Shown piece by piece: positions 3,001-6,000 of a DNA stretch of 23,911 bases. Location of the stretch: IMG/VR virus record IMGVR_UViG_2671180841_000003; one strand, written 5' to 3'. Positions within the stretch are counted from its first letter, which is position 1. Each line of letters begins with the position of its first letter. The DNA comes from a virus. Taxonomy: Duplodnaviria > Heunggongvirae > Uroviricota > Caudoviricetes. A program made the position numbers.

Positions 3001-6000
3001 ATGAATGCCGCTAAATGCCGCATGGTATTACAGCCAGTGTGTTGAGCGACCTTATTATCCATGCGCGGTATTGTCGCCGTATTCCTGCATTAACAGAGAC
3101 CGCAGCCCGACAGGGAGACTCCTCTGCGCGAGTGTGCGGGGATAATCAAAAACGATACACACCGGGGTTTACCGCGTTAACGGAGCGCGGCGTTGTCCCC
3201 TCATAGTCGCCTGTCCGGTGCGATGGTGGAAGAAACCGAACGTTCATTTCTCGTTATTTGTCATGCTGGCCGGGCGCAGATGCGTTGCATCTGTTGCCAG
3301 CCTTCTCCTGCAGGCTTCAATAACCCACGCTGAAAAGTTACCGGACCCTTTATGCTCAAGGGCGATGTTGATCTGTTCAATTATGTGATTGGGGAAACGG
3401 ATATTGCGGGTTGTGGTTCTGCGGGTCCGGTTTTTCGATGACATATTTATTTCCTTTACTGATTGCCATATGACGGGGATTTTACATGGCTGAGCTTCGT
3501 ACACTCCAGAGCAGAATCAAAACACTGAATACCCGACGGGTGAATATTCTGAAGGGGGAGCAGCGTCGTGTCAGTGGCAGTGCACGTGTTTCCCTCAAGC
3601 GTCATATCTGGCTGAGGGACGCCGGGCAGTGCTGTATCTGTGGTCGTGTGGTTGACCTCTGTGACAGTGAACTCGATCACCGAATTGCACTTCAGTTCGG
3701 TGGTGGTAATGAGGAGACGAATCTTTGGACGCTCTGTGCCGAATGCCATCGACAAAAGTCTGCTCGTGAAGCGGCGAGTGGTATGCCGGACCCGACGCTG
3801 CCGGAGGTGTCCGGAGGTAGTGGCAGAGAGGACGACATCATCGGACTGTAACCCAACCCGGGGGGGGTATCATCCGGCGTAAAAAACGATCGCTTTGGAC
3901 ACCGCGCCCCCTCTCACGCAGAGAAAAAATTCCCGTTTCAGGGCAGTTAACATGTTAACTGGCTGCCCGGGCATTTTTGCGGTTTTTATCTTTATTATTC
4001 AGTTTGTTGTGCGGAAAAAATGTTAACAGGCTTTTTCAGCAAATGTTAACCAGGCAGCAGTTAACATTTGCGGCATGAGACGCCGGGAAAAATGGGCTGA
4101 ACCATACCCGGCTGAGTGCGTTCTGGACCCGGGAGGAGGCTGTGCTGACAACGCAAAAACGAAAATTTGCGCTGGCGCTCATGTCCGGGAAAAACAAAAC
4201 AGCGTCAGCCATTGCCGCCGGTTATTCGGCGAAGACCGCCAGGGTTAAAGGCTCGCAGCTGGCAAAAGATCCTGAGGTGCTTGCGTTTATAGCCCGTAAA
4301 CAATGCGAGACGGTGGAGGTGGATGAGGTTCCTGTTTACCGGCAGAAAAAATCAGAGCAGGAGGATAAACCCCGTCGCCGTGAGGCGGCTGCAATACCAC
4401 AGCCGGACGAAAACAATCTGGAGATGCCACCGTCCGCGGTGATGTCTCCTGGTATTGAATATATGGAGGATGGTCTTCCCGATCCGGTGAAAGCCATGGG
4501 GCGGATCCTGGTGGAAAACCTCTGCATTGATCCGAAACTGGCACTGGATGCGGCCTGGCGTCTGGCGCAGTTCACGCACCATAAAAAAGGGGATACCGGG
4601 AAAAAATCGGCAAAAGGTGATGCCGCGAAAAAAGCGGCTAACCGTTTTGCGGTGCCACCGCCCCCCCGACTGGTGGTGAATAACGATAATGAGGGCAACG
4701 GATGATACCTGTATGGAGCACAGCCTGCCCGGACTGGGCAGAGCGCCTGAAAAAGGGGCTGTCGATTATTCCGGATCCGATTTATCCGGACGAGGCCGCA
4801 CATGCCCTGGCGATTTTTAAACAACTGCGGATTGTGGATGCACCTGGTAGCCCTACGTTCGGGGAGTCCTGTGCACCGTGGGTGTTTGACCTGGTGGCGG
4901 CCCTGTTTGGCTCCTACGATGCGCAGACCGGTGTACGCCATATCAAGGAAGTTTTTATCCTTATCCCCAAGAAAAACTCGAAGTCCACGCTGGCCGCGGG
5001 GATCATGATGACTGCACTGTTACTGAACTGGCGGCAGGCGGCGGGTTACACGATTCTGGCCCCGACTGTGGAGGTGGCGGCCAACGCCTTCAACCCTGCC
5101 CGGGATATGGTACGACGTGACGATGATCTGGATGACCTCTGCCAGGTACAGACCCATATCCGGACCATCACCCACCGAGTGACGGACACCACCCTGAAGG
5201 TGGTGGCAGCCGATCCGAATACGGTGTCCGGTATCAAGTCCGTGGGTACGCTGATTGATGAGTTGTGGCTGTTTGGCAAGCAGTGCAAGGCGGAGGACAT
5301 GTTACGTGAAGCCATAGGCGGCCTTGCCTCCCGCCCGGAAGGGTTTGTGGTGTATACGACCACCCAGTCGAATGAACCGCCCGCCGGGGTGTTCAGACAG
5401 AAACTGCAGTACGCCCGGGATGTGCGCGACGGCAAAATTCATGATCCGCACTTTCTGCCGGTGATATTTGAACACCCTCCTGAAATGGTGGAAAGCGGGA
5501 CTAACCTGCTGATGGAAAACCTCGCCATGGTCAATCCGAATCTCGGCTATTCAGTGGATGAGGCCTTTCTGTACCGGGAGTACCGTAAAGCCCGGGAAGC
5601 CGGTGAAGAGACATTCCGGGGGTTCATGTCAAAACACGCCAATGTGGAAATTGGTCTTGCCCTGCGCTCTGACCGCTGGGCGGGGGCTGATTTCTGGGAA
5701 GAGCAGGGCCGTTGTATCAGCCTGGACGATATCCTGCGTCGTGCTGATGTGGTGACGGTGGGGATTGACGGCGGAGGGCTGGATGATCTGCTGGGGATGT
5801 ATGTGATTGGGCGTGACCGGGAGACCCGCGAATGGCTGGGCTGGGGCCATGCCTGGGCGCATGAAACCGCGGTGGTCCGACGGAAGAGCGAGGCGTCCCG
5901 GTTTCAGGATCTTGTTGCCTGTGGAGATATGACCATTGTCCGGCGTGTCGGGGATGACACGGCGGAAGTGGCGGAATATGTGCGTCGCATTCATGAGGCT

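Follow-up and report, generated by a model that had tools for sequence, protein, structure and literature searches.

A conserved YlcI/YnfO-family (DUF3950) gene at the edge of a phage packaging module, and candidate GTG-N6-CAC operators at its satellite homologues

Using the 23,911-nucleotide stretch of IMG/VR virus record IMGVR_UViG_2671180841_000003 (the window), we examined a small minus-strand gene and the DNA around it. The open reading frame occupies positions 3244 to 3444 and encodes 66 amino acids, with its ATG at 3444-3442 and its stop codon at 3246-3244, and a Shine-Dalgarno element read from the sequence (AAGGAA, 3451 to 3456, minus strand) stands 6 nt 5′ of the start. The protein is strongly basic (pI 11.5), containing 12 lysine and arginine residues versus 5 aspartate and glutamate residues, with 6 of the basic residues lying within positions 1 to 18. 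Its divergent neighbour, at 3486 to 3851 on the plus strand, is an HNH endonuclease gene (Pfam HNH, E = 2.7 × 10−7; phrog_589; existing annotations), and with the HNH ATG at 3486 the spacer at 3445 to 3485 measures 41 bp and contains both ribosome-binding sites, the HNH one being GGGGA at 3475 to 3479. The same 41-bp spacing was also found in Stx-phage relatives. A sequence-only reading of this locus had described a 66-residue basic protein with a good ribosome-binding site, divergent from HNH by 41 bp, and these data bore it out exactly, its range of 3244 to 3485 corresponding to the coding sequence plus the spacer. The list of open reading frames also held a longer, GTG-started form of 86 amino acids (3244 to 3504); the 66-residue ATG form is the version annotated by both RefSeq and GenBank, at identical coordinates in NZ_CP023844 and ON470626. 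Downstream of the gene, no co-directional open reading frame was found in the window, the next 200 bp being noncoding and followed by an opposite-strand frame. An Rfam search of the whole window returned no RNA family, and PADLOC gave no match to a defence system or to a toxin-antitoxin family.

The gene is a real and already catalogued member of the YlcI/YnfO (DUF3950) family, not a new one. The full Pfam model of DUF3950 (PF13132, model positions 1 to 30) matched residues 21 to 50 with an E value of 3.1 × 10−19 and 69 bits (cut-off, 25), NCBIfam NF041551 (YlcI_YnfO_N) matched with 35.2 bits (cut-off, 30), and phrog_949 matched with an E value of 8 × 10−33. RefSeq holds the identical protein as WP_000095741.1, “YlcI/YnfO family protein,” which is the annotation in many E. 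coli prophages that match the DNA here with 100% identity. Comparison of codons 1 to 49 (3298 to 3444, minus strand) with the lambda copy gave 22 synonymous and 5 nonsynonymous differences (dS, 1.56; dN, 0.045; dN/dS, 0.03), and on this codon comparison the segment is under strong purifying selection. The database matches together with this ratio indicated that the reading frame is beyond chance, and we rejected the view that the 5′ half, though conserved, serves only as a recombination linker, since synonymous sites are saturated (dS of about 1.5) and the protein is conserved.

According to the alignments and the AlphaFold secondary structure, the conserved core comprises a basic N-terminal arm, a predicted strand (TRNIRF), helix A, the loop GSGN, and helix B with NFSAWVIEAC. 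Among 32 diverse members, R16, F37, and V41 were invariant and I15, F17, S38, A44, and C45 were conserved in at least 90%, and the family motifs, the IRF(P) strand and NFS(A/S)WV..AC, are both present in the window protein. The remaining codons, 50 to 66 plus the stop (3244 to 3297, minus strand), form a hypervariable tail with pLDDT below 50 at residues 60 to 66. Tails of close homologues differ wholly in sequence and length, and a mosaic joint, as read from these alignments, lies inside the gene. A profile search started from the most divergent members retrieved only DUF3950 proteins among the 120 matches listed, with no gradation into annotated RHH families among them, and the literature searched held no work on the function of YlcI, YnfO, or DUF3950.

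Presence in relatives was confirmed, the gene being found in many E. coli prophages and in 155 phage records, including lambda, 434, HK629/630, and Stx1/2 phages. The lambda copy is unannotated, lies 199 bp from the right end, and is missing from the RefSeq lambda gene list. The decayed K-12 prophages DLP12 (ylcI) and Qin (ynfO) have lost the terminase large subunit and heads and keep intact copies, as the sequence-only reading had anticipated in naming a DUF3950-type protein like those that adjoin terminase genes in cryptic prophages of E. coli. Other genera have orphan copies in the chromosome. YlcI and YnfO have the same size as the window protein and share its invariant motifs IRFP and NFSAWVIEAC, matching it at 45 of residues 1 to 49, and the YnfO-type protein P0105 is 68% identical to it overall, whereas the C-terminal tail of YlcI and YnfO is unrelated to that of the window protein. 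Both in K-12 and in the window the gene is the last leftward one ahead of lambdoid prophage packaging genes. The divergent neighbour differs, however, being the HNH gene of an HK97-like packaging module at 41 bp in the window and, in K-12, lambda cos with Nu1 388 bp away. PMC12288877 lists ybcW-ylcI among the convergent excludons, seen in 50% or more of the RNA-seq samples from K-12. This coverage and the intact copies in decayed prophages are indirect evidence for the expression in lysogens that the sequence-only reading had proposed.

We then considered regulatory signals at the window gene, whose promoter the sequence-only reading had placed inside the HNH coding region. The sole upstream sigma-70-like match, CTGACA-17 nt-CAGAAT (3546 to 3574, minus strand), lies inside the HNH coding sequence and abuts a GTGCACTGCCAC site (3585-3574); a promoter scan gave 2 sites versus 1.0 expected, and both the hexamers and the GTG end of the adjoining site are lost by synonymous changes in relatives. 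The sigma-70-like site is, as judged from these sequences, probably a chance match, and the single GTG-N6-CAC at 3574 to 3585 was rejected as an operator for the same loss. Across the window, GTG-N6-CAC occurs six times versus about 5.8 expected (23,911/4,096), a chance number. The spacer carries a −10-like TAAAAT (3484-3479, minus strand) that lacks a good −35, so that a promoter there is only putative, and the near-palindrome GTCATATGGC in the same spacer was discarded as an operator, having by eye no lambda counterpart. Neither a conserved promoter nor a clear terminator was found for the gene, the fold of its 3′ flank giving a z score of −0.12. The DNA 5′ of the start codon is unrelated between HNH-type and lambda-type contexts, and thus no promoter travels with the gene. 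Near-palindromes within 200 bp upstream numbered zero in all five contexts inspected (the window, lambda, ylcI, ynfO, and an Stx2 phage).

The HNH gene belongs to an HK97-like HNH-cos-TerS-TerL packaging module in a late-operon context, with lysis genes upstream and terminase downstream, and the late transcript runs antisense across the DUF3950 gene. Between HNH and TerS, at 3944 to 4071, we found five copies of ATGTTAAC within about 125 bp versus 0.47 expected, including CAGTTAACATGTTAACTG (3944 to 3961), an 18-bp perfect palindrome and the sole long perfect one in the window. Every HNH-TerS relative carries this array, and the K-12 ylcI and ynfO loci and lambda lack it. Array and gene occur together in 106 of 108 informative viral contigs, a co-occurrence that is uninformative because these relatives represent one lineage, and the other two contigs keep the array with TerS and lack the gene. 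TerS is the conventional reader of such repeats (cosB and pac sites). The array is likely a TerS/cos recognition region rather than a DUF3950 target, and it is probably not part of the DUF3950 gene.

The sequence-only reading had further assigned the protein to the ribbon-helix-helix (RHH) regulators. An AlphaFold monomer of moderate confidence (pLDDT 68) showed residues 1 to 18 extended with no strand called, followed by helices at residues 19 to 32 and 37 to 55, and this model is compatible with an RHH fold because the ribbon forms only in the dimer. The register resembles that of RHH proteins, running from IRFP through helix A and G-x-x-N-F-S to helix B, and the Arc/Mnt/CopG repressors have a similar length, the same predicted strand-helix-helix order, and, like the window protein, a G-x-x-N/S loop ahead of helix B. 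The Arc strand is N-L-R-W-P, compared with N-I-R-F-P in the window protein, a register that hhalign reproduced; in the register of the 9kkd alignment, helix B reads S-x-W-V-x-E-A-x-R in the window protein and S-x-L-I-x-E-A-I-R in the CopG type. The sole sensible-register matches of a PDB profile search were RHH proteins, at subthreshold values (CopG-family 9kkd, E = 0.19; CdbA 6sbw, E = 0.61). On the other hand, matches to the RHH superfamily in sequence and structure were not statistically significant. The hhalign probability against Arc was 5%, scanning 32 members against Pfam at E ≤ 5 gave RHH_6 in one of them only (E = 0.09), Foldseek, a weak test with so small a monomer model, gave no significant hit (best E = 9.3 in PDB and 1.2 in BFVD), and a natural tandem duplication was looked for and not found. 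The HicB-like phrog_497 matched residues 7 to 63 with an E value of 0.006, a weak profile similarity to the C-terminal DNA-binding domain of the HicB antitoxin; however, the window protein lacks the N-terminal domain of HicB, and its gene has no HicA-like toxin next to it. An RHH fold of the conserved core is plausible on the model: the helix order proposed earlier and the register are compatible with it, and no significant match was obtained.

Homologues in PICI-type satellites, spread over at least 15 enterobacterial genera, presented a different arrangement. There, DUF3950 alone is encoded on the opposite strand and diverges from the primase operon; this context held at 9 of the 10 places shown, with the tenth (L016) keeping the primase side without int-alpA, and also at two loci encoding fusion proteins. 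Within 200 bp upstream of the gene at 26 satellite loci, we counted 68 strict GTG-N6-CAC sites versus 0.8 in shuffles and 0.9 in flanking DNA, clustered at about −150, −100, −78, and −30 from the ATG. A GTCAA motif (TTGAC on the other strand) lies at −75 to −55, beside the −78 site, at 20 of the 26 loci, and a TATAGT-like hexamer lies at −60 to −20, beside the −30 site, at 17. Palindromic operator arrays that overlap promoters in this way are a feature shared with RHH repressors; the window gene, in contrast to these, has no adjacent operators. The operator centre is shared by most loci that have one predicted strand in common and changes from group to group; for example, AT-rich centres accompany the strand [TY]KGIRF, GTGTGCGCACAC accompanies KK[NG]IRF, and TGGTAnnTACCA accompanies the NIRFED type. 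These arrays support a DNA-binding repressor role for the DUF3950 family, whose candidate function, on this comparison, would be sequence-specific binding to GTG-N6-CAC palindromes.

Satellite DUF3950 holds the position equivalent to that of the master repressors SaPI Stl and PICI Rpr, flanked by the int-alpA zone and the replication operon, and like these it is divergent from that operon with operators in the spacer. Stl and Rpr, however, are large HTH proteins of Gram-positive elements, and the window gene belongs to a helper phage rather than to a satellite. Whether Gram-negative PICIs have a repressor has been described as unclear (PMC6092414).

The explanation that we favour, with slightly more confidence than doubt, is that the window gene encodes a prophage-expressed accessory DNA-binding protein of the RHH type that acts in trans and has operator-binding kin in satellites. 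In this scheme, a conserved core of about 49 residues would be joined to a disposable tail; the basic arm and the short strand T-R-N-I-R-F would pair with the partner subunit's strand, with two helices following, and the core would bind DNA sequence specifically as a dimer. The satellite homologue, a lone gene facing away from the primase/replication operon, with three or four GTG-N6-CAC palindromes ahead of it overlapping predicted divergent promoters, would have the anatomy of an autoregulated master repressor. Phage copies (the window, lambda, 434, Stx phages, DLP12, and Qin) appear to have kept the DNA-binding core without adjacent operators, and the phage gene lies antisense in the late operon at the last position ahead of the packaging module, which is the niche of lambdoid lysogen-expressed accessory genes such as bor. 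The kept core, the lack of adjacent operators, and the bor-like niche together suggest a nonstructural DNA-binding protein that is expressed by the prophage and acts in trans, and antisense late transcription may silence the gene during lytic growth. The data show that the gene is real, belongs to the family, is under purifying selection, and is distributed as described, and that operator arrays stand at its satellite homologues; we infer that the fold is RHH, that the phage copy binds DNA as a dimer, that lysogens express it, and that it acts in trans. The likeness to bor-type morons of lambda extends to the interval between lysis genes and cos and to the antisense orientation; Bor, however, is a lipoprotein with a serum resistance phenotype, whereas the window protein is basic and cytoplasmic, and unlike in a moron cassette no promoter/terminator bracket travels with the window gene.

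Alternative roles were weighed against the same data. It is unlikely that the helper copy acts in trans on PICI/HE-PICI operators, silencing satellites or titrating their repressor. Such cross-talk would fit the facts that the sole DNA sites attributable to the family occur in satellites, that the phage copy has no operators in cis, and that the Gram-negative PICI repressor is stated as unknown (PMC6092414); moreover, a helper-embedded satellite (L008) that carries a pair of DUF3950 paralogues has inserted into TerS of the window's phage type and directly adjoins a 66-residue gene of identical length. Yet no operator matching the phage-type predicted strand was found, phage-type and satellite-type proteins are only 36% identical, so that their specificities probably differ, and K-12, which carries both ylcI and ynfO, harbours the alpA-bearing CP4-57 with no GTG-N6-CAC cluster (4 sites in 24 kb versus about 5.9 expected). 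A small basic adaptor acting on proteins or RNA (HNH/terminase or late mRNA), with a superficial RHH similarity, appears quite unlikely: the nonsignificant fold tests and a place beside packaging genes conserved over two unrelated terminase types favour it, but the gene survives in DLP12 and Qin after their loss of the terminase large subunit and heads, and the satellite operators, which keep fixed positions and have centres varying in step with the predicted strand residues, speak for direct reading of DNA by DUF3950.

Binding of the protein to the 3944-4071 palindromes, as the sequence-only reading had supposed, was not borne out, and we consider it very unlikely that the protein reads the ATGTTAAC array and in this way influences how cos is recognised or cleaved, or the transcription that enters the terminase genes. 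The density of the array, its co-occurrence with the gene, and its loose resemblance to the GTGTTTAAACAC operators of some satellite homologues are on the side of this role, as are satellite fusions of DUF3950 to the N-terminal HTH of TerS, 66% identical to the N terminus of the window's TerS, which link the domain to packaging proteins. However, lambda, DLP12, and Qin share the identical predicted strand TTTRNIRFPN and have no ATGTTAAC nearby, the array travels with HNH-TerS and stays with TerS in the two contigs without the gene, and it lacks the GTG...CAC ends that the strict GTG-N6-CAC sites counted at IRFP-type satellite DUF3950 genes share. It also lies 500 to 620 bp away, past HNH, versus fixed satellite offsets of −150 to −30, and the HTH domain of TerS is encoded directly downstream of it. 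An antitoxin-like or partner-dependent role, also raised by the sequence-only reading, would have the protein neutralise or regulate a co-transcribed partner such as the DUF1398 protein encoded after ynfO in Qin-type prophages. DUF1398 (ydfO/ybcV type) is indeed co-directional 57 bp 3′ of ynfO in K-12 Qin and lies about 100 bp downstream at five E. coli, Shigella, E. albertii, and Escherichia sp. loci, and the weak HicB-like similarity points the same way. This role is nevertheless highly improbable, with no co-directional gene downstream in the window, an opposite-strand gene separating the DUF3950-DUF1398 pair in lambda and DLP12, solitary DUF3950 copies in satellites, and no PADLOC match.

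The window gene adds no new kind of element, because it is an ordinary annotated member of a DUF family. The conservation of DUF3950 nevertheless exceeds its obscurity, with a dN/dS of 0.03, retention in decayed K-12 prophages, and an unannotated copy in much-studied lambda, and the comparative data give the family a testable molecular function, the binding of GTG-N6-CAC palindromes. The satellite homologue occupies the master-repressor position in Gram-negative elements, for which no repressor is named in PMC6092414. A bolder reading, to which we assign a low probability, is that DUF3950 proteins are the missing DNA-binding master regulators of Gram-negative PICI/HE-PICI elements, with GTG-N6-CAC arrays as their operators, and that the copy in lambda-like and HK97-like helper phages is made by the prophage and acts in trans on resident satellites or on a cos-proximal site. 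If this were true, the helper's own version of the regulator, carried at the edge of its packaging module, would tip the conflict between helper and satellite.

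The DUF3950 gene was read from the sequence as 66 codons on the minus strand (ATG 3444-3442, stop 3246-3244), with a Shine-Dalgarno motif, AAGGAA (3456-3451), 6 nt before the ATG. The same 66-aa form is annotated at the same coordinates by RefSeq (NZ_CP023844, WP_000095741.1) and GenBank (ON470626). The small minus-strand ORF proposed by the sequence-only reading is real; a mechanical ORF list gives a longer, 86-aa version from a GTG at 3504. Since the divergent HNH gene starts at 3486, the spacer is indeed the claimed 41 bp, and it contains the ribosome-binding sites of both genes; Stx-converting phages have the identical 41-bp arrangement. 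The protein is as basic as supposed (pI 11.5), half of its 12 lysines and arginines lying within residues 1 to 18. The gene is set among lambdoid late genes, in the order holin, endolysin, Rz, a 71-aa ORF, DUF3950 (minus strand), HNH, TerS, TerL, and a protease-capsid fusion. The 71-aa ORF (2830-3045, plus strand) overlaps the Rz stop and matches only positions 100 to 165 of the 291 in phrog_2571, and may represent only a piece of some longer gene. Within the structural-gene region, 118 N (10223-10340) are masked or unresolved.

The suggestion of a DUF3950-type protein held, with matches over the cut-offs of both Pfam DUF3950 (E=3e-19, 69 bits versus 25) and NCBIfam YlcI_YnfO_N (35.2 bits versus 30). 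Phrog_949, which has no assigned function, also matches (E=8e-33). The 1.4 kb surrounding the gene is 100% identical in E. coli chromosomes and phages vB_EcoS-569R3, 705R7, and 783R2, and this region is matched in 1,944 of 5,426 complete E. coli genomes. These family matches and identical annotated genes indicated that the gene is an already known, annotated YlcI/YnfO family member. The literature searched on YlcI/YnfO/DUF3950 yielded no function; a 2026 survey merely has "YlcI/YnfO family protein" among its listed cf-PICI accessory genes.

Upstream of the start codon, HNH-type and lambda-type contexts align as unrelated DNA, and homologous proteins diverge completely past residue ~50, so the conserved unit is codons 1 to 49. 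A mosaic joint lies within the gene (window 3244-3297): past codon ~50, close homologues carry tails that have neither sequence nor length in common, giving products of 46 to 110 aa. Frameshifts or extensions affect many of the database entries. Between the window and lambda, codons 1 to 49 carry 22 synonymous and 5 nonsynonymous differences (dS 1.56, dN 0.045, ratio 0.03), which marks a strongly constrained protein; the same dS and dN rule out reading the core as a recombination linker.

The ribbon-helix-helix (RHH) fold that had been proposed fared less clearly. AlphaFold, with a 32-sequence alignment, predicted an extended N terminus, a helix at 19-32, a short loop, and a helix at 37-55 (mean pLDDT 68), a monomer that looks like an RHH protomer without its partner. 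The model found no significant match by Foldseek in the PDB or BFVD, and hhalign against Arc gave 5% probability, in the expected register. PDB sequence matches in a sensible register were to RHH proteins only (9kkd, CopG family, E=0.19; 6sbw, CdbA, E=0.61), and a HicB-like PHROG matched with an E of 0.006. Because the model is compatible and the fold tests fell short of proof, we regard an RHH-like fold as likely, not established.

By tblastn, 155 phage records contain the core; among them are lambda, 434, HK629/630, DE3, mEp332, and many Stx1/Stx2 phages. Among the records listed, it lies on the minus strand in 39 of 40, and ~200 bp from the end in the cos-ended lambda-like ones. The lambda ORF (NC_001416.1, complement 48109-48303; L102 2710-2904) is intact, encodes 64 aa identical to K-12 YlcI, begins with an ATG 199 bp away from the right cohesive end, and is unannotated in that RefSeq record. 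In K-12, ylcI of DLP12 lies opposite nohD with the cos region between them (388 bp), while ynfO of Qin (L006 4257-4958) is followed after 57 bp by the codirectional ydfO (DUF1398). A pair of DUF3950 and DUF1398 (YdfO/YbcV type) recurs ~100 bp apart at five further loci (L022, L023, L052, L053, and L056) from E. coli, Shigella, E. albertii, and Escherichia sp., in prophages of the lambda type; the window has no such pair. Across the family, only 185 clusters (50% identity) matched among 1.8 billion representatives, and those inspected were all enterobacterial or contamination. Dozens of matches at 87% identity fall in unrelated assemblies (Nanosynbacter, Streptomyces, Cohnella, Pseudomonas, Shewanella, and others; L024-L051, L054, L057, L081, L092, and more), on contigs of ~3.5 kb or 48.5 kb and ~200 to 390 bp from the contig end, and look like residual lambda DNA from controls (nanopore DCS or lambda spike-in). 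Short-loop homologues stand alone on chromosomes of Rouxiella, Salmonella arizonae/diarizonae, Tatumella, Pantoea, and Citrobacter amalonaticus (L059, L061-L063, L071, and L078), with no phage or satellite genes within 3 kb; judged from translations alone, their neighbors resemble housekeeping or effector genes.

Relatives beyond Escherichia phages were the most informative: there, DUF3950 genes occur in PICI/HE-PICI-type satellites, in the order integrase, AlpA, a Bro/AntA/Rha-type gene, DUF3950, two to four small genes, primase, and sometimes TerS or capsid genes (of ten places displayed, L016 lacks int-alpA), and DUF3950 is the sole gene on the opposite strand. The spacer to the primase operon (180 to 215 bp) contains 12-bp GTG-N6-CAC palindromes. 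In the 200 bp preceding the DUF3950 start codon, 26 loci (L013, L017, and L064-L101) from at least 15 genera hold 68 strict sites, versus 0.8 in shuffles and 0.9 in flanking DNA, concentrated at about −150, −100, −78, and −30. A GTCAA adjoining the −78 site reads TTGAC on the opposite strand, a predicted −35 for the primase-operon promoter, and a TATAGT-like hexamer adjoining the −30 site is a predicted −10 for the DUF3950 promoter. Most loci that share a predicted strand peptide also share a palindrome center, and centers differ from group to group: [T/Y]-K-G-I-R-F strands go with AT-rich centers (GTGTTTAAACAC, GTGCATATACAC), K-K-[N/G]-I-R-F strands with GTGTGCGCACAC, and the N-I-R-F-E-D type with TGGTA(C/G)(G/T)TACCA. 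This is how an autoregulated repressor and its own operators are laid out, and it provides good indirect evidence that the core reads DNA. Arrays in the divergent promoter region, with centers tracking strand residues, make DUF3950 a candidate satellite repressor; according to PMC6092414, no global repressor of Gram-negative PICIs had been identified, and apart from the 2026 listing we found no mention of DUF3950 in the PICI literature consulted. In satellite proteins P0207 and P0249, DUF3950 is joined to the N-terminal helix-turn-helix of a TerS; the TerS-type part of P0249 has 66% identity with residues 1 to 54 of the window TerS. The P0249 satellite sits inside the TerS gene of a window-type prophage (L008, E. 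coli CP027459.1; 5590-6363 and 8696-9776) and encodes a 60-aa DUF3950 protein and the 120-aa fusion, whose genes have separate upstream repeat sets (GGTACGTACC twice and three GTGTTTAACAC-like copies). L007 4714-5103 was grouped with these helper-embedded loci.

The window protein is 36% identical to satellite DUF3950 proteins and has the same invariant motifs; however, its gene lacks their GTG-N6-CAC operators. No near-palindrome was found within 200 bp upstream of phage-type genes in any of five contexts, and GTG-N6-CAC occurs 6 times in the entire window, versus ~5.8 expected (23,911/4,096). The only sigma-70-like match upstream of the gene on its strand (3574-3546) adjoins one of them (3574-3585), and synonymous changes destroy both in Stx-phage relatives, so we regard the two as probable chance occurrences. 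The spacer has a −10-like TAAAAT at −40 to −35 on the minus strand without a good −35, and the 3′ flank shows no obvious terminator.

Binding of DUF3950 to the palindromes at 3944-4071, between HNH and TerS, had also been proposed. There, ATGTTAAC occurs in 5 copies versus 0.47 expected, which include an inverted pair (GCAAATGTTAAC/GTTAACATTTGC) and an 18-bp perfect palindrome, CAGTTAACATGTTAACTG, the only long one in the window. In every relative, the array goes together with the HNH-TerS module. The K-12 ylcI and ynfO loci lack it, although ylcI, ynfO, and the lambda ORF encode a predicted reading strand identical to that of the window gene; in viral contigs L117 and L163, where the module is rearranged or interrupted, the 18-bp palindrome and TerS remain but DUF3950 is missing (in L163, HNH as well). 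Neither does the array have the GTG...CAC ends typical of strict sites at IRFP-type satellite genes. These data argue against DUF3950 as its binder, and the array is probably the TerS/cos recognition region of an HK97-like packaging module rather than a DUF3950 target. Its motif also reads as weak −35/−10 hexamers (4049-4020, minus strand).

We propose that the window protein is small and RHH-like and binds DNA, probably as a dimer. DUF3950 would act in satellites as an autoregulated repressor of the replication operon, and in lambdoid phages the core would have been retained as a stand-alone accessory gene, the last before the packaging module and oriented against late transcription. A function in the prophage is suggested by three observations: the gene is kept in decayed prophages, orphan copies occur on chromosomes (Salmonella arizonae/diarizonae, Tatumella, Pantoea, Rouxiella, and Citrobacter), and K-12 ylcI has RNA-seq coverage (PMC12288877). 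Late antisense transcription would turn the gene off during lytic growth. We consider every rival explanation of the role of DUF3950 quite improbable. With an annotated, known family and a classical proposed mechanism, the element itself is ordinary; of moderate interest and directly testable are the functional hypothesis for DUF3950 and the candidate repressor of Gram-negative satellites, along with an overlooked conserved DUF3950 ORF beside lambda cos.
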